The notes under the pieces: generated by a model | The model's database searches: none | Told to the model about the DNA's origin: nothing | The model's input: only the letters and a program-made list of their open reading frames with translations | Program-made: the position numbers and the translations under genes | Source: a candidate division BRC1 bacterium HGW-BRC1-1 | Lineage (GTDB): Bacteria; Sumerlaeota; Sumerlaeia; Sumerlaeales; Sumerlaeaceae | Direction: 5' to 3' | DNA length: 64,000 bases | Assembly (NCBI GenBank): GCA_002842095.1 | Contig: PHCB01000006.1 | Span: 3,814-67,813, forward strand | Shown here: positions 2,942 to 62,585 of the stretch, piece by piece | How positions within the stretch are numbered: the first letter of the stretch is position 1 | Layout: each line of letters begins with the position of its first letter

Positions 2942-3087
2942 GGCGCTCCCGACAGACAAAGGTTTGATACCCACCAGATGAATCGCCCCACATGACCGAG
3001 ACAACCCATTTCTTGCGGATTCCGCAGGAGAGCAGACATTCCTGTCGGCTGTTTTGTTTTTATCTCACCCCAGCGCAATTACGTGCG

Positions 3088-3272: not shown

Positions 3273-3306
3273 GGCGGCGACCGGCGAGGGCGCCGGTCCC
3301 ACATTA
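3273..3306. repeat. REP-like hairpin element, family R1, copy 1 (GGCGGCGACCGGCG-AGGG-CGCCGGTCCCACATTA)
   Basis: 8-bp perfect stem GACCGGCG/CGCCGGTC with a 4-nt loop. Near-identical copies at 7111, 10219 and 42564. Confidence 0.7.
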
Positions 3307-4525: not shown

Positions 4526-4767
4526 GACGAAACCACCTCACAAAAATAATCAAACCGCAGCCCCAACACCACCCGCGCACTCCCCCACCCAAGCGCCAGA
4601 GCGTCAAGGGCGATGTGGCAAGCCACAGCGATAGAAAAAAAGTCCGTACCCTCACAACCATCAAATGTGCGACCGGCGCCCCCGCCGGTCGGCACCAGAC
4701 ACCACCATCACGCAACATTGTTTCTCCTCGATTATTACTAATCACCCATCCTATCTTCGCTCCCACT

Positions 4768-7063: not shown

Positions 7064-7144
7064 TTCATAGCCATCTGCGGATGAAACAGGTTTGCGTGAC
7101 CGCAGTATCTGGCGGCGACCGGCGGGGGCGCCGGTCCCACATTA
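7064..7144. repeat. R1 REP-like element, copy 2, with 5' extension (CTGCGGATGAAACAGGTTTGCGTGACCGCAG hairpin) and one ATCTGCG heptad
   Basis: Core GGCGGCGACCGGCGGGGGCGCCGGTCCCACATTA at 7111–7144. The extension is shared with the copy at 10186. Confidence 0.7.
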
Positions 7145-9800: not shown

Positions 9801-10078
9801 GGCCTTGATGAGCTTTTAATCCTATTGAGTAGTCCACGTATCTCGATCCACTTCGGTGACGATTTTTTAGCGGCTCCCACATTGCTCGCAGAACCGAAGA
9901 ACACATGAAACAAAACGATCCGGTAACCGCGCCAGAATTGCATCATGGAGTTGGGACGACAGAGTTGAAATTAATACCCCAAGATTTTTCAAATCATTTA
10001 CAGCAGAAATATCGAGTATACGACGATATCCACTACAACCTCCCGAGCGCGAGGTGCCGGATAAACCTCTTTGTAGAA

Positions 10079-10107
10079 ATCTGCGTAAATCTGCGCCATC
10101 TGCGGAT
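10079..10107. promoter_or_regulatory. Three phased direct repeats ATCTGCG-N3-ATCTGCG-N2-ATCTGCG-GAT (family R2), about 300 nt upstream of the GT-C-like gene start on the minus strand
   Basis: Identical triple-heptad arrays occur at 28568–28596 and 33796–33824, with a single heptad at 7073. Confidence 0.45.
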
Positions 10108-10185
10108 GATTTCTGTGGTCCCTCCGGGGCTTGATATTTAGGTGAAGGGTTCCCTTGCCCGCTCTGCGGGAAAAAACAATCTGGG

Positions 10186-10251
10186 GATGAAACGGTATTG
10201 CGTGACCGCAGCGCCCTGCGGCGACCGGCGGGGGCGCCGGTCCCACATCAG
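10186..10251. repeat. R1 REP-like element, copy 3, with the same 5' extension as copy 2 (GATGAAACGGTATTGCGTGACCGCAG…GCGACCGGCGGGGGCGCCGGTCCCACAT)
   Basis: Sequence identity to 7081–7144. Lies just downstream of the map-NUDIX operon end. Confidence 0.7.
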
Positions 10252-25950: not shown

Positions 25951-25976
25951 ATTCTTTGCCAAGAGAGCAACACACC

Positions 25977-26867
25977 ATGAACACCGCACCTATTGCCAAT
26001 CATGAAATCTCTGTTAAACCAATCTCGGGTTGGCGAACGCTGCCCTGGGTACTTATCGCCTTCCTTGCCGCTGTGTCTGCCTTCATTTACGGCATCGGCA
26101 TCGAGTCGGTTCTTTTTATCGTCGTCGGCATATTAACCATTTTAGTGGCCGCCGTCGCTTGCGCGGGGTTTGTAATGCTTCCCCCCAATACTGCCGTGGC
26201 GCTGCTGCTTTTTGGGTCCTACCACGGAACCGCCCGCGAAAGCGGATTCTGGTGGGTGAACCCGTTCTACACGAAAAAGGTCGTGTCGCTGCGGCTGCGC
26301 AACCTTAACGGCCCCAAGCTGAAGGTGAACGACAAGGCCGGCAACCCCATCGAAATCGCCTGCGTGGTGGTGTGGAACGTGGAAGACACCTTCGAGGCGC
26401 TCTTCGAGGTGGACGACTACCTCGATTACGTCTCGGTGCAGAGCGAATCCGCCATCCGCCACCTCGCCTCGCAATATCCCTACGATTCGTGGGAGGACGA
26501 CGACATCATATCCCTGCGCGCCAACATCTCTGAGGTTTCAGAGGCTCTGGAAGTGGAACTTCGCGAACGGCTCAGCCGCGCCGGTGTGCGCGTGCACGAG
26601 GCGCGCCTTACGCACCTGGCCTACTCGCCCGAAATCGCTGAAGCAATGCTCCGCCGCCAGCAGGCCGGTGCCATCGTGGCCGCCCGCAAGAAACTGGTGG
26701 AGGGCGCCGTGGGCATGGTGCGCATGGCCCTCGAACAGATCCAGGATGAACACGTAGTGGAGATGGACAACGAACGCAAGGCCGCCATGGTCAGCAACCT
26801 CCTCGTGGTCCTCTGCGGAGAGACCAACGCCCAGCCGGTCATCAACGCCGGCACACTGTATCACTGA
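25977..26867 (+). CDS. SPFH/band-7 (stomatin/HflK/C-like) membrane protein
   Basis: N-terminal TM segment, then an SPFH-like core (…[48 protein letters not shown]…) and a C-terminal helical region. ORF-track start is at 25956; the second ATG (MNTAP) is preferred. Confidence 0.65.
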
Positions 26868-26891
26868 CAGCCGAGGAAAGTACCTGATATC

Positions 26892-27449
26892 ATGCCTTCA
26901 CCAGAAGGAACGCTCATATACGAAGAAACGCAGGGCTTTGGGCAGCGCAGCAACTTTGCGATGCTTCTGCTGGTTGCCCTCTTGATACTCACCGCTGTGC
27001 TTGCCCCCCTCATCGTCATCCTCTATGCCCCACCAGAGGTCCGCCACGAAGCGCAGATAAACGGCATTATTGCCAGCCTCATTACCCTCCTCGGCGGGGT
27101 CATCACCTTTGCCAGCTTGTTTTTCATGCGCATAGAAACACAGGTGCGCACACGCGGCCTGTTTGTGCGCCTGCGCCCACTGCCATGGCGTTTCATAGCC
27201 CCGGACGGCATGGTTGCGCATCAAGCCATTACTTATCGGCCCATGCGCGATTATGGAGTTGGCTACCACCGCAGCCTTCGCAAGAAATGGGTTTGCTTCA
27301 ACGCTTCTGGCAATAGAGGCGTGCGGATCGATCTCGCCGACGGTTCCCACGTTATCATCGGCTCACAATCCCCCGACCGCCTCGCGCGGGCCATCTCGCA
27401 ACTGCGCGGCAGCGATGCCGCCCTCCCCAGGGAGAGGAGCGAACCATGA
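26892..27449 (+). CDS. YdbS-like membrane protein (2 TM plus a C-terminal bacterial PH-like domain), paralog 1
   Basis: Two TM helices followed by a roughly 95-aa domain, RIETQVRTRGLFVRL…IIGSQSPDRLARAISQLRGSDAA. Architecture resembles bPH_2/DUF304 proteins. Confidence 0.45.
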   Translation: MPSPEGTLIYEETQGFGQRSNFAMLLLVALLILTAVLAPLIVILYAPPEVRHEAQINGIIASLITLLGGVITFASLFFMRIETQVRTRGLFVRLRPLPWRFIAPDGMVAHQAITYRPMRDYGVGYHRSLRKKWVCFNASGNRGVRIDLADGSHVIIGSQSPDRLARAISQLRGSDAALPRERSEP

Positions 27450-27979
27450 CACCCCCCGAGGGATCCGCGCTCTATGAGGAAAAACAGCATTTCGGCTGGT
27501 CGATAATGGCAATGGCTGTCGTAGGCGTGTTGGTGGTTACCGTAGTTGCCGCCGTGCTTACCATCAAGCGCGCAGGCCAGGGGTCCGGGCCCATGCCAAC
27601 TGGCGTGATTCTCATGTCATTGGCGCCTTTCGGACTCGTTATTGCCGCCACGCTCCTACCGCTTCTGCTTCGCGTCGAAACACAAGTCCGCACTCGGGGC
27701 CTTTACGTGCGCCTGATGCCCTTCCCGTGGCGTCATGTTCCCGCCAGCGAAATAACCACCCACGAAGCGACCTCGTTCCGCCCCCTTCGCGATTGCGGTG
27801 GTTATGGCATGCACAAGAATTTCCTCACCAAGACCACCAGCTATAACGCCCGGGGCAACCGGGGCGTTCGGATCGAGCTGACCGACGGCAAACGCCTGAT
27901 CATCGGCTCACAAACCCCCGACCGCCTCGCGCGGGCCATCTCGCAACTGCGCGGCAGCGATGCCGCCACCGGCCAATAG
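27446..27979 (+). CDS. YdbS-like membrane protein, paralog 2 (tandem duplicate; ATGA overlap with paralog 1)
   Basis: Same architecture as paralog 1. The last approximately 69 nt of the C-terminal coding region are 98% identical at the DNA level to paralog 1 (27353–27421 versus 27897–27965), while the rest has diverged. Confidence 0.45.
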   Translation: MTPPEGSALYEEKQHFGWSIMAMAVVGVLVVTVVAAVLTIKRAGQGSGPMPTGVILMSLAPFGLVIAATLLPLLLRVETQVRTRGLYVRLMPFPWRHVPASEITTHEATSFRPLRDCGGYGMHKNFLTKTTSYNARGNRGVRIELTDGKRLIIGSQTPDRLARAISQLRGSDAATGQ

Positions 27980-27994
27980 GAGACCCCACCCGTC

Positions 27995-28186
27995 GTGCAG
28001 AAAAAATTCCTCCTGCGAATAAGCCCCAAACTCTACGAACAGCTCGAACGCTGGGCGCAGGAGGAACTCCGCAGCGTCAACGGACAGATAGAATATCTCC
28101 TCCGCGAAGCCGTGCAACGCCACCACCCCACCCAAATCATCGAAGCCACGGAGCCAATCGAGGAAGACGAAGATGTGGATGCTTGA
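27995..28186 (+). CDS. Arc/MetJ-type ribbon-helix-helix DNA-binding protein (63 aa) with an acidic C-terminal tail
   Basis: [36 protein letters not shown] matches the Arc-family RHH pattern (beta strand, then R-S-x-N-x-EI helix). Confidence 0.55.
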
Positions 28187-28323
28187 AAAACTCTCGTGAA
28201 GTAACGACGGGAATTTTACGGCTTAATCCGGTTCGGTTCCATCGCTGGCTTCAGGCCCTGACGCCCTCCTTTTTCATCCCAACTCGGGCGCATGCCAATG
28301 ACTGCGCCTGCCCCCCGACCACC

Positions 28324-28706
28324 TGGGCGGACACACAGGTCCGCCCCTACGATCGGGTCTGGTTTTCCAACAAAGGAATTCGCGTTAATTAGCGTCCATT
28401 AGCGATTCGTTATTCGCCTTGGCGCGGGCTTACGGCACGCATCACGAGAGCGCGGGAATTGGCGCAGGAACGATCGGGGGCAGGAATGCCCCCGCCCCTG
28501 TCAGGAGGAGGACATTCCTTTCCCCCTACCATTCGGTTTGGCGGTGAACGGAACGGTCAAAGAATCCATCTGCGATCATCTGCGCCATCTGCGGATTCAC
28601 TCCGTGGGCACTTGGGCGGACACACAGGTCCGTCCCTAGGATTGGTTTCGGTTTTTCCAACAAAAGAATTCGCGTTTGCGTCCATTTGCGGTTCGTTTGT
28701 TTGCTT
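28324..28706. repeat. Composite intergenic repeat locus A: R4a (28324–28416), R3 hairpin GGGGGCAGGAATGCCCCCGCCCCTGTCA (28476–28503), R2 ATCTGCG heptad triplet (28568–28596) and R4b (28613–28706)
   Basis: R4 is TGGGCGGACACACAGGTCCGCCC (8-bp stem hairpin) …GGTTTTCCAACAAAGGAATTCGCGTT-A-TTAGCGTCCATTAGCG-TTCG. All subelements recur at 32.0–32.25 kb and 33.74–33.94 kb. Confidence 0.75.
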
Positions 28707-28985
28707 CGCGGGCAGAGGAATTACGCAGATTGTCAGCGGGAACCGATTGAATCCTCCATCGGTGGAGCGAAGAAACCCCACGGCGTGTGGTGGCTCCTCA
28801 TCTTTTCTACGCGTCAGGCTTTTAGATCACTTGACTCTACCAATTCTGCCTACGGCGATTTGGCTATTGGGGAAATATGTCGCCACCATTCTTGGTGGTT
28901 GTGCATTTCTTCCCGCAATGAGCGTGGGGGCCGCACCCGCGTTACCCCACCTTTGTGTTCAATCTCATTTTATGGGGAGTCGCGG

Positions 28986-31910
28986 ATGAACAGGATCGTC
29001 TTCTTTTTGGTTGGCGCAATCGCAGCGACGGCCGTTATGACCGCAGCCGCGGCGTCGGTGACGAATGTGCGCGCGAACCAGCGCACGGACGGATCGGCAT
29101 TGGTGGATATTGACTACGATCTGGCGGACGTGACGGCGGTTGCCAGTGTGAGTGTGGAGTTCTCACTCGATGGTGGCACGTCTTACACGGTGGTGCCGTC
29201 CACAACCGCGCTTTCGGGCGATTGCGGCGTAGTGACCTCCAGCGGTTCCAACAAGCGAATCGTCTGGAATGCGGGCGTCGACCAGCCGAGCGTGTACACG
29301 GATCAGTGCCGAGCGCGGGTGAGCGCGTTAAACGCAGGGCAGGTGACGACTATTACCCTCCCGGGCGGCGTGCCCCTGGAGATGGTAGCCATCCCGCCGG
29401 GCAGCTTCCAGATGGGCGCGAACGACGAAAGCATGTGGTCGGGGTGGCCTGAAAGCGAGAAGCCGGTGCATACGGTGACGATCGCCCACGCGTTCCAAAT
29501 GGGCCGGTTCGAGGTGACGCAGAGTCAGTGGCTGGCGGTGATGGGCAGTTGGCCGGATCCGAACTGGCCGCCCACTTCATTATCCGGCGTGGGGGACAAT
29601 TACCCGGTCTATTTTGTGTCGTGGGACCACATCAGTGCTGCCAACGGTTTCCTGAATACGCTGAACGCGCATATTTTCTCGACCGGTCAGGGCCCTGCGA
29701 CGTTCCGGTTGCCATCTGAGGCTGAGTGGGAGTATGCGTGCCGCGCGGGCAGCCAGTCGCGGTTCAGCTTCGGGAACTCGAACTGCACCGATAAAACTGA
29801 CTGCACGACAGGCCGCGATCTGGCGGATTATGCATGGTATTGTGGGTTGGGGACGCCAGCATACAGCACAAAGTCTGTCGGTGGGAAGTTATCCAATGCC
29901 TTCGGTCTGTTCGACATGCATGGCAATGTGTGGGAGTTGTGCGAGGACTGGTATCACTCGTCGTACACGGGAGCGCCGACGGATGGTAGCGCGTGGAACA
30001 GCCCTGCGGGGTCTTACCCGGTGCTACGCGGCGGCAATTGGCTATCAAGTCCGGGGGAGTGCCGCTCGGCCTATCGCAACGCAACCGGCCCGCGCGATCT
30101 CTCCAACGGCTTTGGGTTTCGGTTGTCGCGGACATTGCCTTCGACAGCTGAGGCCTCCTCTCCTGCAGAATCAAACATCTTTGTTTTAGACACGAGGGTT
30201 GTAGGCTCGTTGCAGGTGAGGCTCCTGCCAGCCGCTGCGGTGACGGCAGGCGCGCAATGGCGGCGCACGGCGACTACGACCTGGTTCAGCAGTGACGTCA
30301 CGGAATCCTCCATTCCCATCGGTAACTATCAGGTGGAGTTCAAGGATGTGTCGGATTGGATCACGCCCGCGAACCAGTCTGTCACAATCCAGAACGGAGA
30401 GACGGCGACGGCGACGGCGGAGTACAGCACGAATTACGCTCTGACCTCTGCTGATTTCAACCCCGGAGCCCCTGCTCCGGTACAGCCCGCGTCAATCCTC
30501 GATGTGACATGGTCTGTCAGCGGCACACCTCCGGGAACCATCTGGGCCGAACTATTCTTGTCCAAGACCGGCGGTTTTGATACCTGTCGAGTTGGCGCTA
30601 CGCTTACGAACTCGTCGCGATTCGCCTTCCCTGGTGTTCCAGTGAATCACACTCCGGGCAATCAGGTGGTCAACTATGTTCCCGATGGCGTTTATACCAT
30701 CGTGCCCATGATAAACCGCCCCGACACGGGGGGACCCATAGAGAATAATTACGTTAACAACTGGGCGCCCATCGCCGGAAAACGGGTGCTCATCCGGAAC
30801 AACCAATTTGCAACGTGCGATCTGGCCTGGTCGGGAACTCCCTCGTTCGTGGTTTCCGGCCAGAACGTCAGTGTGTCGGGTACCGTCATCAACCTCAGCG
30901 GCAACACTCCCGCTTACGGCTTCTGGGTTGAAACAATCTACGGCACCTTCTCCGACGAAGGATTGTTCCTTGCGGAAGGCTACATCTCCGGAGGCGAGAA
31001 GGTATCCACGTCGCTGGGCCCCAACGACACGGTGGCCTTCAGCCAATCTGGCATCGCTCCGGCTGGCAAGGACCTCGTGGTGGTGGTCGACTCGACCGAC
31101 ATCATTTCCGAGACCGAAGAACGCAACAACAGTGCTTCTCACCGCGTTTCGACTCCCGTTGGACGTGGCTCGTTGGACCTGACCGTGACGGATGCATCGT
31201 TCTCTGCGGCCCAGCTTGCTCCGACAGAGCTAAGCCCCTTCGGGTCGCTGCAATGGTCCGCCACCATTCGTAATAACAGCACCCAACCCACCGGAGATTT
31301 CTGGGTTGAGCTGTTCCACTCAAATAACGGTGGCATCGGTTCCATGAGATCCGGCATCACCCTCACGCAGTCGGAGAAAGTTTCTCTCGCTGCGTCGGAA
31401 ACCAAGCCGTTTAACTTCAATCAACCCTTCAACCAGATTACCGACGGAATCTATTCGGCGGTGGTGGTTGCCAACCGCAACTCCGTGGGTGTCAATCCCG
31501 GCGACACCAATCCGGCGGACAACAGCTTTGTGCTCCCCGGCCGCGTGGTATTGATCAACTCCACAGCCCCGGTCGCGAACCTTCGCTGGAACGCGGAACC
31601 CGTTGTCACACGAACCGGCAACCTCGTTTCCGTAACAGGTCGGGTGATCAACGATGGTCCCGATGCAACAATCGGTTCCTCATGGGTTGAAGCGTATTAC
31701 GGCACCATGGATGTGGCCGGGCGTTACTCCCCACTAAACGTGGTGGCGGGCGGCGTCCTGGTGCCTCCGCTGGCGGGCGGAGAAGGCTACGATATCGCCA
31801 TCAACGGTGGCGTCCTCAGCGGCAACTGGGTAGTGGGCGTCATTATAGATTCAACCGATCTCGTGCCTGAAACCGACGAAACCGATAACTACACGTATCA
31901 ACCGAATTAA
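28986..31910 (+). CDS. Large secreted protein (974 aa): signal peptide, Ig-like domain, FGE-sulfatase (SUMF1/DUF323) domain, then multiple CARDB-like beta-sandwich repeats
   Basis: ATG at 28986 with GGGGAG Shine-Dalgarno sequence (ORF-track start at 28686 lies in the repeat). FGE signature RLPSEAEWEYACRAG…DMHGNVWELCEDWY…LRGGNW…GFRLSR. C-terminal repeats end in the CARDB-like motifs ETEERNNS and ETDETDNYTYQPN. Confidence 0.7.
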   Translation: MNRIVFFLVGAIAATAVMTAAAASVTNVRANQRTDGSALVDIDYDLADVTAVASVSVEFSLDGGTSYTVVPSTTALSGDCGVVTSSGSNKRIVWNAGVDQPSVYTDQCRARVSALNAGQVTTITLPGGVPLEMVAIPPGSFQMGANDESMWSGWPESEKPVHTVTIAHAFQMGRFEVTQSQWLAVMGSWPDPNWPPTSLSGVGDNYPVYFVSWDHISAANGFLNTLNAHIFSTGQGPATFRLPSEAEWEYACRAGSQSRFSFGNSNCTDKTDCTTGRDLADYAWYCGLGTPAYSTKSVGGKLSNAFGLFDMHGNVWELCEDWYHSSYTGAPTDGSAWNSPAGSYPVLRGGNWLSSPGECRSAYRNATGPRDLSNGFGFRLSRTLPSTAEASSPAESNIFVLDTRVVGSLQVRLLPAAAVTAGAQWRRTATTTWFSSDVTESSIPIGNYQVEFKDVSDWITPANQSVTIQNGETATATAEYSTNYALTSADFNPGAPAPVQPASILDVTWSVSGTPPGTIWAELFLSKTGGFDTCRVGATLTNSSRFAFPGVPVNHTPGNQVVNYVPDGVYTIVPMINRPDTGGPIENNYVNNWAPIAGKRVLIRNNQFATCDLAWSGTPSFVVSGQNVSVSGTVINLSGNTPAYGFWVETIYGTFSDEGLFLAEGYISGGEKVSTSLGPNDTVAFSQSGIAPAGKDLVVVVDSTDIISETEERNNSASHRVSTPVGRGSLDLTVTDASFSAAQLAPTELSPFGSLQWSATIRNNSTQPTGDFWVELFHSNNGGIGSMRSGITLTQSEKVSLAASETKPFNFNQPFNQITDGIYSAVVVANRNSVGVNPGDTNPADNSFVLPGRVVLINSTAPVANLRWNAEPVVTRTGNLVSVTGRVINDGPDATIGSSWVEAYYGTMDVAGRYSPLNVVAGGVLVPPLAGGEGYDIAINGGVLSGNWVVGVIIDSTDLVPETDETDNYTYQPN

Positions 31911-32036
31911 GCTCTGTCCCCACCCTCGGGGGTGGGATTGTGGTTCATGAAAATGGAGTGTTCCGCGCTGGCATGGGCGGAACACTCTTTCTTTTTGCGG
32001 GAAGGATTAATCGCCGCCAATTCAACTGAGCTTACT

Positions 32037-32240
32037 CCGGGGGCGGGAATGCCCCCGCCCCTGTCACCCACATTCGGGTCCCCCAACGAAGTAAAGTCTG
32101 AGCTTGCACACCGGTTGCACACCGGTTGCACACCGGTTGCACACCGGGGACATTGGGCAAACCGCCCCTACGATCGGTTCTGGTTTTCCTATTTTACAGT
32201 TCGCGTTCATCCGCATCAATTAGCGGTTCGTCATTCGCCC
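32037..32240. repeat. Composite repeat locus B: R3 hairpin (32037–32069), four tandem 11-mers TTGCACACCGG (32104–32147) and a degenerate R4c (32152–32240)
   Basis: Direct sequence comparison with locus A. The element runs to within 10 nt of the stop of gene 32251..33657. Confidence 0.75.
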
Positions 32241-32250
32241 AGGCGCGTAC

Positions 32251-33657
32251 TCACCGCGCGCGCATCACGAGATCGCCGACGCTCATGGTGCCGTTGGTTG
32301 CGTCGTAGATGAGGGCGCCTTGGTCGTCGTGCTTGTCGGGGCCGAGGCTGTAGAAGCCCGCGGTGTCCGAGCGCGGGAACGACGCGCTTGTGAACGGGTC
32401 CATCGGCTCGGTGGCGATGTACTTCGGCACGAGATCGCCCGGAGCGGACGGGGCGGCGCCCCCTTCCAGTTTCGCTATACGCTCTGCCAGCGCCACCTCC
32501 GTGAGGTGGAAGTGCGCGGCGGAAACCCTCTCGCGGATGGACGTCTCGAGGAAGTTGGGCGAGGCGAAGGACAGCAGCGCGTCGCGCACCATATCGCCGT
32601 ATGGGCCGGCGTACTTGAACATTTTGATAAAGTTGAACTGCTGCTGTTGGTCGTTGCGTGCCTCAAGCATCTCGGCATACTTGGCGCGCAGCGGGTCGTC
32701 AGGCGCGAGTTGCTGCATCCTCCACTCGGGATAGAGTGTAATGGAGTTGATACTCTGGTCGAACAGGTAGGTCACGGGCTTGGAAAAATCCAAGTCCACC
32801 GGGAATCCCTCGCGCTTGAGCGCGCGCAAGTTGCCCAGCGTGTCGGCAAGGGCGATGTCTTCCAGCATGGGCTCATTAACTTGCGCATCGAGGCGTTCCA
32901 TTTCGGCAAGCGATGCCCGCAGTGCCGCCGTGTCATCGCACTGCGCGGCGATGTCGGAGATGGTGGCAGTGGCCATGCGATTCACGGCGATAGCGATGAG
33001 TTGGGATATCAGCGTGGAGGCGGGGTGCCTTCGCGCGAGCGCCAGAACGGAAGTGGCCGTCGCAAGCCCGCGCGAGGTCTCGCCGTCGAGAGCGTCGAGA
33101 CGCGCGCTGAGCAGGGCGACCTTTGCAGCGGTCTGGTAACCAAGAAACTCTACGGCGCTTATCCCGCCGATGGGCGTGTCGGCGGCACCCGTGTCGTAGT
33201 CGGGCCGGGCCGAAAGCGCAAGTGTTGCGGCAATAAGCTCGGAATCCTGCTTGACGAGAGTTGCAGCAGCAGCGCGATCCGCAGCGGACAGCGGCGGTCC
33301 GTACACCATTTGCGCCAAGATTGTCGTGATCGAAGCCGTATCGCGCCCGTCTGGCGATGCTGCCTCGGGAGTCACGGCAAGGGGTGTAACGTCGCCCGAA
33401 CGATTTCTAAAGGCGTCGCCAAAGGCAGTAAGTGCCACCTGCGTTTCCGGCGAGAGCGGTTCAACCTGCGCCCACGAGGCCGGAACCTGCGGAGGCTTGT
33501 GTGCCCGTTCGATCATCGCGAGCTGGTCTGGCGACATCCTGCTGCGCAGGTAGGACCGCAAGCCGTACGGCACCACGACAAACACCAGCACACCCAGCAC
33601 CACCAAAGTAATGAGACATCCCTTCAACTTGCGCTGCCGCGTCCATGTTCCGGTCAT
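32251..33657 (-). CDS. Hypothetical membrane-anchored protein (N-terminal signal-anchor, alpha-helical extracytoplasmic domain)
   Basis: 468-aa ORF; TM LITLVVLGVLVFVVVPYGL; no recognisable catalytic motif. Its last 7 codons (…DLVMRAR) are encoded by sequence that is also repeated at 28437–28457. Confidence 0.5.
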   Translation of the reverse strand: MTGTWTRQRKLKGCLITLVVLGVLVFVVVPYGLRSYLRSRMSPDQLAMIERAHKPPQVPASWAQVEPLSPETQVALTAFGDAFRNRSGDVTPLAVTPEAASPDGRDTASITTILAQMVYGPPLSAADRAAAATLVKQDSELIAATLALSARPDYDTGAADTPIGGISAVEFLGYQTAAKVALLSARLDALDGETSRGLATATSVLALARRHPASTLISQLIAIAVNRMATATISDIAAQCDDTAALRASLAEMERLDAQVNEPMLEDIALADTLGNLRALKREGFPVDLDFSKPVTYLFDQSINSITLYPEWRMQQLAPDDPLRAKYAEMLEARNDQQQQFNFIKMFKYAGPYGDMVRDALLSFASPNFLETSIRERVSAAHFHLTEVALAERIAKLEGGAAPSAPGDLVPKYIATEPMDPFTSASFPRSDTAGFYSLGPDKHDDQGALIYDATNGTMSVGDLVMRAR

Positions 33658-33741
33658 CTGTGGGTCTCCATTCTGATTTCATCCAAACAGGTGTTAGACG
33701 CAAGTGCGCGGGAAAACGATGACACGCGCTTGAACGATTTC

Positions 33742-33935
33742 GGGGGCAGGAATGCCCCCGCTCCTGTCAGAGTTGCTTGAATGGTCAAAGAATCCATCTG
33801 CGTTCATCTGCGCCATCTGCGGATCGATTTCGTGGCAATAGACGGGCACGCTGGTCCGTATCAAAAATTGATTTGTTGTTTTTCTAATAAATCAATTCGC
33901 GTTTATTCGCGTCCATTAGCGGTCAACAATTCGCG
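33742..33935. repeat. Composite repeat locus C: R3 hairpin (33742–33770), R2 heptad triplet (33796–33824) and R4d (33841–33935)
   Basis: R4d supplies the last 11 codons (VRELLTANGRE*) of gene 33903..35750. Confidence 0.75.
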
Positions 33936-35750
33936 GACCACACCGTTTTCGATGACGTGGGTTACTCCGGGTTTTATCTGCACCCCGCCCTCGGCCTCGA
34001 TGGGGTCGCGCCAGTAGAAGCGCCGGTTCAAATAAAACGGATACGTGGGCGAGACGAACTGCACAACGGCGTCGCGCGGGAGGGTGCGGTTCAGTTCATC
34101 GTATTGGCGGATGAGGTCCAGCCCGAAGGGTTTCGTCTCCAGATAGCTCAGGCGGTCCTCCGCCGTGAGAACCGGGCGATAGCCCCACGCGACGGTCTCG
34201 TAGCCGCCCCACTGGACCTGCTTGCTGCCGTAGGTCCAAGCGAGCGCGGCGGCCACCGCCGCCAGCCCGCCGTAGCGCAGCGTGGGCGACACCTCGCGCC
34301 GTGCACCCAGCCACGCCATGCCAGCGCCCACGGCCACGAACACCGCCGGATAGCACATGGCGAAATATTTGATGGTCTCGCTCTGGCCAGCCGTCCAAAT
34401 GTACACGACCCATTGCACCAAGGCCACCGCACCCAGAGCGCGCAGACGGGCGTCACGCACGGCGAACAGCGCCAGCACCACCGCCGCGTGCAGAACGAAA
34501 CCGGGACTGCGCTCGGCCACGGCGAAATTCAGTTTGTCGGGCACGGCGCGCAGTGCCTCCAGCGCCCCCGCCGGAGAGAACGCGTGGATATCCAATCGTC
34601 CGCCACCACCGCCCGCGCCCGCTGCGGCAACTGCAGCGCTGAAACTTTCATTCATGGGCATCCATTCGCGGAACATCGGAAAAAACGGATTGCCACTACC
34701 CAGCGTGGCGCTTCGCACGGCCCACAGGGCGAACGGTAGACACGCCAGCGCTACGGCCCCTGCGGCCATCTTCCAACCCACACGACGCCGCACCACCGCC
34801 ACCGCAAGCAGCACCAGCCACGGGGCTAATCCATAACCCAGCGCCGTAATTTTCGTGGCCACGGCAAACCCGGTTAGCACCCCCGACAGCATCCACAGGG
34901 CAGCGTTGCGTCGCGCCTCCCCCGCACCAAACCCCGCCTCCACGGCCACCAGCAAACCCGCCGTGGCGAACATGGCCACGGTCAGTTCAGCGCCCGTGTT
35001 GATGGGCACAAACCATACGTTGGCCCCATACGCCGTGGCGCACAGCAGCCACGTCCACGCGCCCGCCACCGCGCCAAACCACCGCCGCGCAAACAGCGCC
35101 GCCACGGAGAAGCACAGAAACCCCTCCAGCGCATACAGCAGCGAGCAATCGATTTCGTCGCCAAGCATCAGCGCGATGGAATACAGCACCGACCCATGCA
35201 GCGCGTAATTGCTGGGGAAAACCTCGGGCCACGCATCCAGCCGCCCCCACCAGATCCACGCCCGCGCGCACGAGAGGTGGTACCAGAGGGAATCCTGCTG
35301 GGCATCGGGCGCCAGCGCCCCCAGCAGCGTGTTTAACGCGGCCGCGGCGCAGAGGAGGCCGATCAGCCACAGAAGCCAGCGCGGCGCGTCAGACGCGGTT
35401 GTCGCGGCCTTCGGGAGCGATGTCTGTGCTTCTTGCCGCTGCGACCGCCACGATTTCCGATCGCCCCACATGCGCCATGCGCCGCCCGCCGCGCAAGCCA
35501 GCACCAGCGCACCAACCCACACCGGATGCCATATCCCGGCCAGCCCCGTAACCACCATCACCGCGCCGAGCAGCCCCAGCCCCAGGACCGCGCAAACCGC
35601 GAGGTCCAGCGCTGGCGACCAAACAAACGGTTTTTCCCCGCGCAGGCGCGCCAACACCTGTCCCCCGGCGCCCACCGCCGCCGCCAGCGCGACGGCGCTT
35701 TTCGCCAGATAAACCAGCACCAGCAGGAAGGTGAGGGCAGCGTTGGTCAT
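33903..35750 (-). CDS. Polytopic membrane protein, putative GT-C-type glycosyltransferase (DUF2029/PMT/ArnT-like)
   Basis: 615 aa; 10 or more TM helices in the N-terminal two-thirds with periplasmic loops rich in W/Y, and a C-terminal soluble domain. No catalytic motif confirmed. Confidence 0.4.
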   Translation of the reverse strand: MTNAALTFLLVLVYLAKSAVALAAAVGAGGQVLARLRGEKPFVWSPALDLAVCAVLGLGLLGAVMVVTGLAGIWHPVWVGALVLACAAGGAWRMWGDRKSWRSQRQEAQTSLPKAATTASDAPRWLLWLIGLLCAAAALNTLLGALAPDAQQDSLWYHLSCARAWIWWGRLDAWPEVFPSNYALHGSVLYSIALMLGDEIDCSLLYALEGFLCFSVAALFARRWFGAVAGAWTWLLCATAYGANVWFVPINTGAELTVAMFATAGLLVAVEAGFGAGEARRNAALWMLSGVLTGFAVATKITALGYGLAPWLVLLAVAVVRRRVGWKMAAGAVALACLPFALWAVRSATLGSGNPFFPMFREWMPMNESFSAAVAAAGAGGGGGRLDIHAFSPAGALEALRAVPDKLNFAVAERSPGFVLHAAVVLALFAVRDARLRALGAVALVQWVVYIWTAGQSETIKYFAMCYPAVFVAVGAGMAWLGARREVSPTLRYGGLAAVAAALAWTYGSKQVQWGGYETVAWGYRPVLTAEDRLSYLETKPFGLDLIRQYDELNRTLPRDAVVQFVSPTYPFYLNRRFYWRDPIEAEGGVQIKPGVTHVIENGVVRELLTANGRE

Positions 35751-35896
35751 GAGGTCAGCCGGCCACGGCCGAAATAATGGGAGTGATAAGAAGAATGGGA
35801 GTTATGAAAAACGGAAGCTGTCAGACCAACCATTTACATCACTCTCATAATTCCCAGAACTCCCATACTTCCCATTTCTTTGAACCCACCCGCCTC

Positions 35897-37837: not shown

Positions 37838-38100
37838 TGACGCAAAGACGCGAAGGACGCAAAGAAAAGCAGAAGCAAATGCTTCGACACAAAGACACAA
37901 AGTCACAAAGGAAAACCAAAGATCAGAAATTCAGAACTCAAAGATCTCGATAACCATTCTCCACCAAACCCAGCTAACTACTAATTTAGTTTTGATTAGT
38001 TTTCACTTATAACATACCCTCGGAATGCCACACGGTGTAAGGGTCATCGGACAATCGTCTTCAGTTTTTTTCGCTTTTCTTTGCGTTCTTTGCGCCTTTG
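37838..38100. repeat. Pair of inverted approximately 32-nt arms (GACGCAAAGACGCGAAGGACGCAAAGAAAAGC at 37838–37869 and its near reverse complement at 38068–38099), each built from 9-nt-phased CAAAG-containing repeats
   Basis: Direct comparison. A related direct copy GGCACAAAGGCACGAAGGCACAAAGAAATGC is at 42128–42160. Confidence 0.6.
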
Positions 38101-38138
38101 CGTCGGGATTTTTCGCTATTTTTTGTGTCGCGGAAATT

Positions 38139-42118: not shown

Positions 42119-42563
42119 AAGCGAAGCCTTTGGCACAAAGGCACGAAGGCACAAAGAAATGCAGGATGGGGCAAGGGCGTTCCGAGGCTGTTTGTGTTGT
42201 GAGATGACCAGCGCTCTATAAGCGGTACCATCCAAATGTGGGCCCGACGCCCTCGCCGCTCGCCGCAAGGCATTGTCTGCACGCCAAACCGTTTTTCCGA
42301 CGGAAGGATCTCTCGCAGGGCCGCAGGAACAAAACGGTTAGTTTATCCTTCAATCGGATTTTCTGGTGGGGGGTTCATCGCCGTTTGCGTTGTCAGATTC
42401 CGCCGCTCCTCCGGAGCGGGCTTTTAGGTGGGACGGTTCCGGGGGTTCCGGTCGCTGCGCTCCCTCCACCGCCCGGCTACTTGCCGAGCCCCCTCCGGGG
42501 GCACAAACACCATGACAGTTCACACCTGTCTGTATACAAAAAGCATATTGAGGACACAGCTGT

Positions 42564-42596
42564 CAGGCGACCGGCGAGGGCGCCGGTCCCACATTA
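42564..42596. repeat. R1 REP-like hairpin element, copy 4 (CAGGCGACCGGCGAGGGCGCCGGTCCCACATTA)
   Basis: Identical hairpin core to the copies at 3273, 7111 and 10219. Confidence 0.7.
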
Positions 42597-44658: not shown

Positions 44659-44698
44659 GTTGCGACCGGTGTGCAACCGGTGTGCAACCGGTGTGCAA
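44659..44698. repeat. Tandem 11-mer CCGGTGTGCAA ×3.6, the reverse complement of the TTGCACACCGG array at 32104
   Basis: Direct comparison. Lies in the 650-nt divergent intergenic region between the two FlgD-Ig-like paralogs. Confidence 0.75.
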
Positions 44699-46637: not shown

Positions 46638-47307
46638 TTATTGCTTCGCGGCGTCTTCCACACCCGTAAGGGATATTTGCGCTTTACGCATGAGACCACT
46701 GTACTCCTGCGCCGTGCGCGCCTGAGTCGCCAGTTCCACGTAATGGGTGAACTCGTCGAGATTATCGAGAACCACGCTTTTGGGGGAGTCGTCCTGGGAG
46801 GTGTCGGCCTCGATGCGTCCACGCAGTTGACCGGCCTGGTCTAACATTACGGCGGCTTTGTCGGCGGGCAGTTTCACGTCGTTGATAAGATCGAGATCAC
46901 GCAGGGTGGTGCGGATTTGGTCGGCGCCCGTGCGGGTGATGACAGCCGCCGACTTTTCGGTTTCAGCGGGTGCTGTGCGGATCGATGCCACGGCCGATGT
47001 GGGGATATCGGTGATGACCAGGGGCGGGGGTGTGGGGATGTCACCGGGGGGGGCGGCGGGGGGGGGGGGGGGTGCCGACGGGGGTGTCGGAGGGTGGCGG
47101 GAGGGTTGGGACGACGGGGGTGGCTACGATGTCGAGGGTTTCGGTGCCGGTGGCTTGGAGTTGTCCGGTGGCGTCGCGGGCGGGTTGTTCAACCGCGGGC
47201 GGGTTGGCGGCATCTTTGGGGGCGGAAGAACCGCATCCGGACAGGAGCAGGGCGCTGGTGCCACAGGCAAGAAGCCCAAGGGCGGTGCGGCGGAGATAAA
47301 GATTCAT
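46638..47307 (-). pseudogene. Lipoprotein with a Pro-rich linker and C-terminal domain, split into two ORFs by a frameshift at a G15/C15 homopolymer
   Basis: ORF 47041..47307 is MNLYLRRTALGLLACGTSALLLSGC (lipobox) …PPPPRRPPR*. ORF 46638..46991 (other frame) remains open and Pro-rich back through the homopolymer at 47058–47072, then gives a folded-looking C-terminal domain. Confidence 0.5.
47058..47072. repeat. G15 homopolymer (preceded by G8 at 47046–47053) inside the lipoprotein coding region
   Basis: Counted directly in the sequence. Confidence 0.8.
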
Positions 47308-51131: not shown

Positions 51132-51203
51132 GAATGGACGTTAATGGACGATATGGACACTATGGACGAAATGGACGGGGGTGGATTGGACGGATGGGAC
51201 AGG
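51132..51203. repeat. Tandem 9-mer array (A/T)ATGGACNN: AATGGACGTT-AATGGACGA-TATGGACAC-TATGGACGA-AATGGACGG…GGATTGGACGGATGGGACAGG, in the divergent promoter region between the pilin operon and the LysM-CE4 gene
   Basis: Related arrays at 60715–60760 and 62535–62585, each adjacent to a G7–G8 run. Confidence 0.7.
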
Positions 51204-60714: not shown

Positions 60715-60760
60715 GATGGACGGAATGGACGGAATGGACGATATGGACACTATGGACAGT
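60715..60760. repeat. Tandem 9-mer array GATGGACGG-AATGGACGG-AATGGACGA-TATGGACAC-TATGGACAG
   Basis: Same family as 51132 and 62535. Confidence 0.7.
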
Positions 60761-62534: not shown

Positions 62535-62585
62535 GGGGGGGATGGACGGTATGGACACTATGGACTTTATGGACAGAATGGAGCG
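62535..62585. repeat. G7 run plus tandem 9-mer array GATGGACGG-TATGGACAC-TATGGACTT-TATGGACAG-AATGGAGCG, in the divergent region between the binding-protein gene and the creatininase-family gene
   Basis: Same family as 51132 and 60715. Confidence 0.7.

Follow-up and report, generated by a model that had tools for sequence, protein, structure and literature searches.

In a 64-kb stretch of DNA from candidate division BRC1 (Sumerlaeota) bacterium HGW-BRC1-1 (locus-tag prefix CVU37), referred to below as the window, three intergenic loci named A, B and C carry mosaics of short hairpins and tandem arrays. We attribute these mosaics, with a probability of about 0.55, to repeats resembling repetitive extragenic palindromes (REPs) and bacterial interspersed mosaic elements (BIMEs) that delimit a gene cassette which was duplicated, inserted and in part deleted. 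The modules are the palindrome R3, the heptad triplet R2 or another short-period array in its place, and R4, made of a hairpin and a tail. Read on the minus strand, the unit consists of R4 tail, hairpin, short-period array and R3, a leader with a promoter, a gene for a 468-residue protein (468-aa gene), and again R4 tail, hairpin, array and R3. As the sequence comparison indicates, this unit of locus C, gene and locus B entered the 3' end of a neighbouring 615-aa gene and replaced its last codons and its stop codon. By the same comparison locus A is a second, diverged copy of the unit (~78% identity), from which ~1.4 kb of open reading frame (ORF) was deleted. R3, the R4 hairpin, R2, an 11-mer array and a further hairpin family, D6, also stand alone elsewhere in HGW-BRC1-1 and in a sister genome.

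Filled and empty sites could be compared for the segment from locus C to locus B. In a related species (L164), whose 615-aa orthologue is 74% identical, the order is thiamine pyrophosphate (TPP) enzyme, 615-aa orthologue and convergent FGE-CARDB gene, with a spacer of 146 nt between the last two. This spacer contains the same hairpin and T-run terminator as the window, and no R3, R2, R4 or 468-aa gene. Similarity between the window and L164 ends near 33912-33935 and picks up again at 32003, hence ~1.9 kb, comprising locus C, the gene and locus B, constitutes an insertion relative to L164. A more distant outgroup genome (L166) shows the order TPP enzyme, 615-aa orthologue, DUF6141 and EF-Tu, without the cassette and without FGE-CARDB, ribbon-helix-helix or Band_7 genes. 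The original prediction had called for a comparison of presence or absence between related genomes, and a difference was indeed found, the segment being missing at the orthologous site in both L164 and L166. From these sequences, gain of the cassette in the window lineage, rather than its loss in the L164 lineage, seems the parsimonious explanation. A search for FGE-CARDB homologues as comparators for locus A was swamped by multi-domain FGE proteins and returned no orthologue.

The 3' end of the 615-aa gene, 33903-35750(-), retains the trace of this event. Its product corresponds to CVU37_04560 of HGW-BRC1-1 at 100% identity and shows a distant likeness to PMT/GT-C proteins. The ORF and the R4 tail of locus C overlap by 33 nt, equivalent to 10 codons and the stop. 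The C-terminus reads ...HVIENGVVR-ELLTANGRE-stop in the window vs ...HVIEQGRVR-TLAR-stop in L164, and the two sequences split exactly at the start of the R4 tail; the element therefore supplies ~9-10 codons and the stop codon. The earlier claim that R4 encodes the terminal codons of this gene was thus borne out. The broader claim, that the element provides the last codons of two genes, was correct for the 615-aa gene but not for the 468-aa gene, whose C-terminus, GD(I/L)VMRA(P/R) followed by the stop, is conserved in its family and takes no codons from locus B. The R4 tail of locus B does end 10 nt from the stop of the 468-aa gene, as had been stated. A comparison of the region 33903-33990 with proteins P0009-P0019 showed that more distant homologues of the 615-aa protein have ~25 further conserved C-terminal residues (...P.W..L..V....RLY.V), which are absent from both the window and the L164 proteins. 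The 3' end had therefore been truncated once already when the cassette arrived.

Locus A reads, on the minus strand, R4 tail, R4 hairpin, R2, R3, partial leader, ORF end, R4 tail and R4 hairpin. In the relic that it contains, ~26 nt of leader (GATCGTTCC..TTCCCGCGC) run directly into the final ~25 nt of the ORF of a paralogue, TAA stop included. The left part of the locus matches locus C with 78% identity over 147 nt, rising to 89% over 45 nt at R3, and for the right part the counterpart is the 468-aa gene end plus locus B (77% over 115 nt). The three loci therefore represent two copies of the unit, one intact and one minus ~1.4 kb. The fragment 28437-28457 had been noticed before as a repeat of the last seven codons of the 468-aa gene; the match holds, and is collinear with the R4 tail, but the fragment is a relic of the deleted paralogue and not a piece of the element. 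A second relic was found on another contig of the same genome (L120 2075-2183), followed by a GTAG-tagged R4 hairpin and an R3 doublet.

The three loci are consequently not equivalent brackets of three genes, as had been thought, since C and B delimit a single cassette, of which A represents a paralogous copy emptied of its gene. The original prediction described an ordered R3-R2-R4 set at each of them. Alignment confirmed the order, R3, array, hairpin and tail following each other identically in A, B and C, but not the full content: locus B has no R2, its place being taken by four copies of the 11-mer TTGCACACCGG, and the R4 stem is intact in A only. There the 8-bp hairpins (28325-28346 and 28614-28635) fold at -9.9 and -8.0 kcal/mol (z -3.8 and -2.6), whereas the aligned positions in B and C have decayed and fold no better than shuffles (z -0.15 and -0.73, respectively). 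The R4 tail (TTTTCC...ATTCGCGTT...ATTAGCG) occurs four times with 72-90% identity. R2 and the R4 tail are both AT(Y)NGCG heptad arrays, repeated at about one helical turn and placed on either side of the R4 hairpin. Coordinates of all features are collected in Table 1.

Table 1. Repeat modules and associated features; positions refer to the window unless another locus is named.
Feature	Position	Strand	Remarks
D6 copies	3276-3306, 4664-4700 (inverted), 7114-7144, 10220-10250, 42235-42274 (inverted, decayed), 42566-42596		
Independent R2 copy with flanks	10062..10118	+	away from the three loci; repeat family D4
Locus A R4 hairpin, copy 1	28325..28350	+	8-bp stem, CTAC tag (GTAG on minus strand)
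Locus A R4 tail, copy 1	28360..28417	+	3' flank of deleted paralogue
Relic of deleted paralogue	28430..28475	-	boundaries read from sequence
Locus A R3 and decayed inverted partner	28476..28526	+	R3 28476-28503, partner 28504-28526
Locus A R2 heptad triplet	28566..28593	+	
Locus A R4 hairpin, copy 2	28614..28639	+	one G-T pair, CTAG tag
Locus A R4 tail, copy 2	28648..28700	+	
Ancestral hairpin and T-run terminator between convergent genes	31956..31997	.	conserved in L164; outside the element
Locus B R3	32039..32066	+	GGGG tag on minus strand; right-hand end of inserted segment
Locus B 11-mer array, TTGCACACCGG x4	32104..32147	+	occupies the place of R2 in A and C
Locus B decayed R4 hairpin	32147..32171	+	CTAC tag kept (GTAG on minus strand); repeat family D8
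Locus B R4 tail	32181..32240	+	native 3' flank of 468-aa gene family
Cassette cargo, 468-aa gene	32251..33657	-	
Leader of 468-aa family	33658..33741	-	six-sequence alignment
Locus C R3	33742..33769	+	7+4+7 palindrome, GGAG tag on minus strand; outer 5' edge of paralogous gene unit
Locus C R2	33794..33821	+	three ATCTGCG heptads, 9-10-nt spacing; repeat family D4
Locus C decayed R4 hairpin position	33841..33861	+	alignment to locus A R4 hairpins; z -0.73
Locus C R4 tail	33877..33934	+	~10-nt-phased heptads ATTCGCG/ATTAGCG; minus strand encodes (R)ELLTANGRE and stop of 615-aa gene
Further tandem arrays	35846-35875, 37839-37910, 38077-38103, 42132-42156, 44661-44698, 51134-51177, 60716-60758, 62542-62582		intergenic, 8-11-nt units x3-5
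D6 in sister genome	L123 at 991 and 9864		

The modules were next followed through other contigs. L120 to L122 are loci of P0005, a paralogue of the 468-aa protein in HGW-BRC1-1, with L120 on a second contig of that genome; L123 and L124 are loci in the sister assembly GCA_966193525.1. The suggestion that the subelements form a dispersed repeat family, and not a local triplication, was supported by copies elsewhere in the window, on L120 and in the sister genome. R3 (GGGGGCAGGAATGCCCCCGCCCCTGTCA) is present at all three loci on the same strand with 0-1 mismatch, shuffled sequences giving an expectation of 0. It is a 7+4+7 palindrome in which, on the minus strand, the tag GGAG (locus C) or GGGG (locus B) precedes CGGGGGCATTCCTGCCCCCG, and like REPs it folds into a stem-loop, at -11 to -13 kcal/mol (z -1.9 to -3.6). 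R3 has three sites in L120, and its five sites in L123 and three in L124 are for the most part inverted doublets with the common centre CCTGWCAGG. Intact doublets of the kind known from REPINs (REP doublets forming hairpins) lie at L123 3622-3672 and 5233-5277, at L124 6546-6596 and near L120 2350-2400, and one of them folds at -29.4 kcal/mol (z -6.8). The R3 of locus A retains a decayed inverted partner, identified by an inverted-pair search, and is a former doublet.

The R4 hairpin, on the minus strand GTAG followed by GGGCGGAC-CTGTGT-GTCCGCCC, recurs unchanged in L120 and L123; four of six copies carry the GTAG tag and the remaining two CTAG and TTAG. D6, the third hairpin family, has the form GACCGGCG-AGG-GCGCCGGTC followed by CCAC, so that the other strand presents a GTGG-tagged REP-like palindrome. 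Its consensus is GGCGACCGGCG[A/G]GGGCGCCGGTCCCACAT, and its 5-6 window copies mostly lie just 3' of ORFs. Over the 85 kb of the HGW-BRC1-1 genome covered we counted 6-7 R3, 3 R4 hairpins and 5-6 D6. The 57 kb of sequence compared from two Sumerlaeota genomes of more distant kinship contained none of the three hairpin families. R2 has an independent window copy at 10077-10108, and the 11-mer TTGCACACCGG returns in inverted orientation at 44661-44698 and in L120. All repeat copies are intergenic or overlap an ORF end, as is typical for REPs, and in L120 and L170 (the latter, like L168, a further locus with a 468-aa family member) the upstream gene ends on a TGA that belongs to the R3 tail CCTGACAGG. 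Three contigs terminate within R3 or within the 11-mer array, which is expected where a sequence is multi-copy and suggests that R3 is multi-copy as well.

These properties are reminiscent of tagged REPs, which are stem-loops of 20-40 bp with an unpaired GTAG-type tetranucleotide at one end, often arranged as dimers; they often abut ORFs, donate stop codons, occur in PVC (Planctomycetes-Verrucomicrobia-Chlamydiae) phyla, and include a GTGG tag variant in Opitutus terrae (PMC3733652). Like the GTAG-tagged REPs of Stenotrophomonas (SMAG), O. terrae and Rhodopirellula baltica (Di Nocera et al. 2013, PMC3733652), the hairpins described here are GC-rich with 7-8-bp stems, and the R4 hairpin (mostly GTAG) and D6 (GTGG as in O. 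terrae) have an unpaired tetranucleotide of this type at one end. They also share with them the coexistence of several families per genome, head-to-head or tail-to-tail dimers, positions at ORF ends and donation of stop codons. Some differences are equally clear: R3 is tagged GGAG or GGGG, some of the copies lie upstream of genes in divergent intergenic regions, and between the hairpins stand heptad arrays phased at ~10 nt, a component absent from the described REP families. Compared with the REPIN-RAYT systems of Pseudomonas and Enterobacteria (RAYT, REP-associated tyrosine transposase; Bertels and Rainey 2011, PMC3116915), the inverted R3 doublets forming one long hairpin (-29 kcal/mol) and the lineage-specific families common to sister genomes are alike, as is the presence of the R3 palindrome on both sides of a Y1_Tnp gene in a metagenome contig of another lineage (see below). 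Unlike in those systems, the doublets are short (about 52 nt), the partners in the window have decayed to leave single hairpins, and no RAYT was found in the DNA searched. As in enterobacterial BIMEs, hairpin repeats and short motifs form composite intergenic mosaics in a fixed order, with modules reshuffled between loci. REPs alternate in BIMEs, however, whereas the R3 and R4 hairpins are co-oriented here, the non-hairpin modules are tandem arrays of heptads, 9-mers or 11-mers, and no binding of integration host factor, gyrase or DNA polymerase I is known for the window modules.

The R3 palindrome is not restricted to Sumerlaeota. In two public collections it was, among the matches listed, multi-copy in Planctomycetota, Hydrogenedentes, Verrucomicrobia-like contigs and a long Desulfobacterales repeat. 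The tags of these R3-type palindromes, again among the matches listed, mostly follow the pattern G-N-R-G, with 22 GGAG, 12 GTGG, 6 GCAG and 4 GGGG. One metagenome contig (L127, region 1740-2800) encodes a RAYT-like ORF on the minus strand (2003-2494; Pfam Y1_Tnp, 1.3e-5), and both sides of it hold tandem ~79-nt units with GTGG-CGGGGGCATTCCTGCCCCCG and a second hairpin, GTCCGGCAGAGCCGGAC. By analogy this arrangement, in another lineage, supports a REP/RAYT-type nature for R3, a RAYT in HGW-BRC1-1 itself being hypothetical. R3 together with its tail gave 0 matches in a metagenome collection that lacks the source samples. Across the other phyla no association of short-period arrays with R3-like hairpins was seen (4/107 sites vs 10/495 controls).

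Two related observations were made on the way. In L143 (9740-9860; also in L128, L132, L137, L144 and L156) R3-like and GGGGGACTGGAAAGTCCCCC hairpins lie in frame inside a 393-aa ORF, the encoded stretch being ...RRGDFPVPLGGQDGGRNAPAP...; an insertion of REP-like sequence into the gene seems likely, and it is met again in several metagenomes. Furthermore, metagenome-assembled genomes (MAGs) of Desulfobacterales and Deltaproteobacteria (L007-L119) each contain, dozens of times over, a conserved repeat no shorter than 150 nt in which the 20-mer GGGGGCAGGAATGCCCCCGC is included, many copies being located at contig ends.

The modules could instead be ordinary cis-regulatory DNA of the 468-aa family, that is an operator palindrome, a promoter and a 3' untranslated region, copied along with gene duplication and with nothing mobile about them. 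The leader lends this idea some appeal. A reverse-complement R3 and a ~85-nt leader stand 5' of every close paralogue except the one in L168, at a near-constant distance from the start codon, and the leader contains the invariant motifs GTCATCG and CGTC(T/C)AA at a distance of ~16 nt, with a ribosome-binding site after them. Nucleotide similarity of the window with L120 and L123 starts at 33770, the outer R3 edge, and with L124 at 33767, and in all cases runs to the stop codon. Downstream of the stop codon there is an R4 tail both for the window gene and, if a 385-nt insertion is disregarded, for P0005 in L120. Two array regions (35.8 kb and 37.8-38.1 kb) are kept at orthologous intergenic sites of L164, suggesting selection, and R3 is limited to a 5-kb stretch of the window. 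The contexts of R3 outside the family are nevertheless difficult to reconcile with such a function. It also occurs between convergent genes with no promoter to serve (locus B; the doublet at L124 6546-6596) and beside unrelated genes (L120 2384 and 15317, two sites without relation to the paralogue, and upstream of a DUF4855 gene in L123). It forms inverted doublets, and outside this phylum the same palindrome is multi-copy and stands on both sides of a RAYT-like gene. Copies of R2 and of the 11-mer array lie away from the 468-aa family, and the L168 leader has no R3. We therefore consider a purely regulatory origin unlikely.

That the composites are miniature inverted-repeat transposable elements (MITEs), moved by a DDE transposase of the IS630/Tc1 type with a TA target and inserted three times independently, is suggested by an element of just this kind in the same genome. 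At L120 11441-11825 a 385-nt MITE-like element with terminal inverted repeats GAGCGATTTTGAT / ATCGAAAACGCTC and flanking TA/TA carries an 11-mer array and interrupts the R4 tail downstream of P0005; a second, inverted copy lies 8.4 kb off (L120 20236-20611, 87% identity). Its terminal inverted repeats, its TA/TA flanks and its insertion into intergenic repeat DNA recall TA-targeting MITEs such as Correia/NEMIS. The likeness is, however, confined to the L120 element. Locus A has only weak inverted pairs of 13-16 nt and B none, no target-site duplication was detected at A, B or C, and the three loci are related together with gene and leader fragments, so that the copied unit is the cassette and not a small element. 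No transposase was found in the window or the Sumerlaeota loci searched. A MITE origin of A, B and C is, in our view, very unlikely.

The cargo itself offers another possibility, namely that the unit is an autonomous insertion sequence with the 468-aa protein as its transposase or recombinase. The gene is multi-copy; its copies occur in unrelated contexts, share a fixed 5' edge and differ between genomes in presence or absence. It has few homologues: P0005 (CVU37_07170, 63% identity) in the same genome, two paralogues in GCA_966193525.1 (L123 and L124), and others in L168, from another Sumerlaeota contig, and L170; none of the paralogue loci is syntenic with the window. HGW-BRC1-1 has two intact copies and two relics, the sister assembly two copies. 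Copies inside one genome are just 63-74% identical, and the protein does not look like a recombinase. Its predicted structure (pLDDT 78) begins with a membrane helix, continues as an all-alpha repeat body and ends in a small beta region, with no fold match, nuclease and recombinase folds included, at E below 0.001 and no Pfam, NCBIfam or PDB sequence match, and its C-terminal GD(I/L)VMRA(P/R) motif is shared with a prepilin-type (N_methyl) protein. An insertion sequence is therefore a most improbable explanation. In L168 the family gene was observed between different 73-nt direct repeats (2993-3065 and 4682-4754, 92% identity) with a TTTGCG 9-mer array; the leader is retained, and the architecture is alike although the repeats are different.

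The position of a single gene in a variable accessory region, with core genes around it and imperfect repeats of the same orientation on either side, also calls integron cassettes to mind, and the junctions could in principle be attC sites of a cluster lacking an integron integrase (CALIN). Core-site pairs RYYYAAC...GTTRRRY were, however, absent from 28-34.1 kb, and the six in the whole window match chance (7.1 +/- 2.6 in shuffles; core-site search without a covariance model). No tyrosine recombinase or integron integrase was found in the window or the Sumerlaeota loci searched, and the cassette has its own conserved leader and promoter region, whereas typical integron cassettes are promoterless. 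An attC array is thus scarcely credible. A further scenario, which we hold to be quite unlikely, would make the R4-array-R3 junction the dedicated recombination site of a gene-capture system without attC or IntI, in which an HUH/RAYT-like or other trans-acting enzyme would excise promoter-bearing genes, delimited by REP-type hairpins and phased heptad arrays, and insert them at ORF 3' ends. If this were true, the heptad arrays would be the binding sites of the enzyme, and a widely shared version of the machinery would be recognisable by the G-N-R-G-CGGGGGCATTCCTGCCCCCG hairpin found across phyla.

The original prediction had left the choice between a MITE-, REP- or BIME-like and a cassette-boundary-like element open. 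REP-like hairpins and cassette-boundary behaviour were retained from this list; MITE ends and target duplication, attC sites and the orientation of BIMEs were not. Several observations nonetheless weigh against REP/BIME-like cassette boundaries. Within the window R3 is restricted to the three loci, and its GGAG and GGGG tags fall outside the published degeneracy of the GTAG tag. The R3 and R4 hairpin tags are on the same side (head-to-tail) and do not alternate as in BIMEs. Of ten R3 sites, three are situated between divergent genes, an unusual place for REPs. As had been predicted, no transposase, RAYT or integrase was present among about 40 window ORFs tested, and none, nor any other recombinase, was found in ~130 kb of Sumerlaeota loci, so that the mobilising enzyme is hypothetical. 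All available HGW-BRC1-1 assemblies are identical, the whole 6-kb region with the three loci showing 100% identity across four independent assemblies, and no polymorphism was seen within the population. The direct repeats B and C are just about 62-78% alike; the event must therefore be old, and its precise breakpoints are no longer recognisable. Finally, the L164 lineage may have lost the cassette, although this would be less parsimonious than a gain in the window lineage.

If the cassette-boundary reading is correct, the hairpins would be REP-type elements. A RAYT/HUH-type enzyme whose gene lies elsewhere in the genome would probably have disseminated them in single-stranded form, and the dispersed copies may then serve as substrates for recombination, by which intervening DNA, genes included, would be duplicated, inserted or deleted. 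The heptad arrays, phased at ~10 nt, probably bind proteins, most simply on one face of the DNA. The hairpins probably double as 3'-end structures of mRNAs or as insulators, as in other REPs.

Short-period arrays are a general trait of the window. Thirteen arrays with a period of 8-11 nt and at least 2.8 copies were detected, every one intergenic, where the intergenic share of the window is about 10-16% by our estimate. The units of those outside the three loci are AATGGGAGN, GACGCAAAG/GGCACAAAG, TTGCACACCGG and ATGGACGNN. At 37839-38104, upstream of the TPP-enzyme gene, 9-mer arrays of the GACGCAAAG type are inverted with respect to each other, their 43-nt arms (81% complementary) surrounding a ~180-nt AT-rich core; this resembles a transposon end or an iteron, and L164 has a comparable layout. 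A G-rich tract with a run of ~27 G lies at 47026-47122, inside or beside a doubtful ORF.

The genes around the loci encode EF-Tu, Band_7, two DUF6141 proteins, a ribbon-helix-helix protein, FGE-CARDB (28986-31910, plus strand), the 468-aa and 615-aa proteins and the TPP enzyme. In the interval 25956-35750, from the 615-aa GT-C-like gene to the EF-Tu/S10 operon, the outgroup has one DUF6141 gene, and the window Band_7, two DUF6141 genes, ribbon-helix-helix, locus A, FGE-CARDB and the cassette. From its gene content compared with L166 and L164, this interval is therefore an insertion hot spot. The 3' parts of the two DUF6141 genes are 84% identical over 128 nt. Other scans of the window were negative. 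No Rfam family reached its gathering score, the sole sub-threshold match in 28.1-34 kb being a spurious long non-coding RNA, no tRNA or tmRNA was found, and a sigma-70 promoter scan gave no excess over shuffles. A sigma-54 reading of the 468-aa leader was ruled out by the spacing on hand inspection. R3 and R4 were also considered as intrinsic terminators and rejected, as neither has a T-run; the one region picked up by the scan was that of the ancestral FGE terminator.

Much work has been done on REP/BIME-type repeats of Proteobacteria, but a full-text literature search on the R3 sequence and on Sumerlaeota repeats returned nothing relevant, and so no description of them for this uncultured phylum. 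The locus offers a clean comparative case, with filled and empty sites, a gutted copy, and repeats at the edges of a duplicated gene unit whose arrival rewrote the C-terminus encoded by an adjacent gene. In two respects the locus extends the textbook picture of such repeats: the tight combination of hairpins with ~10-nt-phased heptad arrays, some of them kept between species, and one 20-nt palindrome common to several phyla that adjoins a RAYT-like gene in one. For the annotation of such genomes, the locus is a warning that repeat DNA can make up ORF ends and spurious ORFs.

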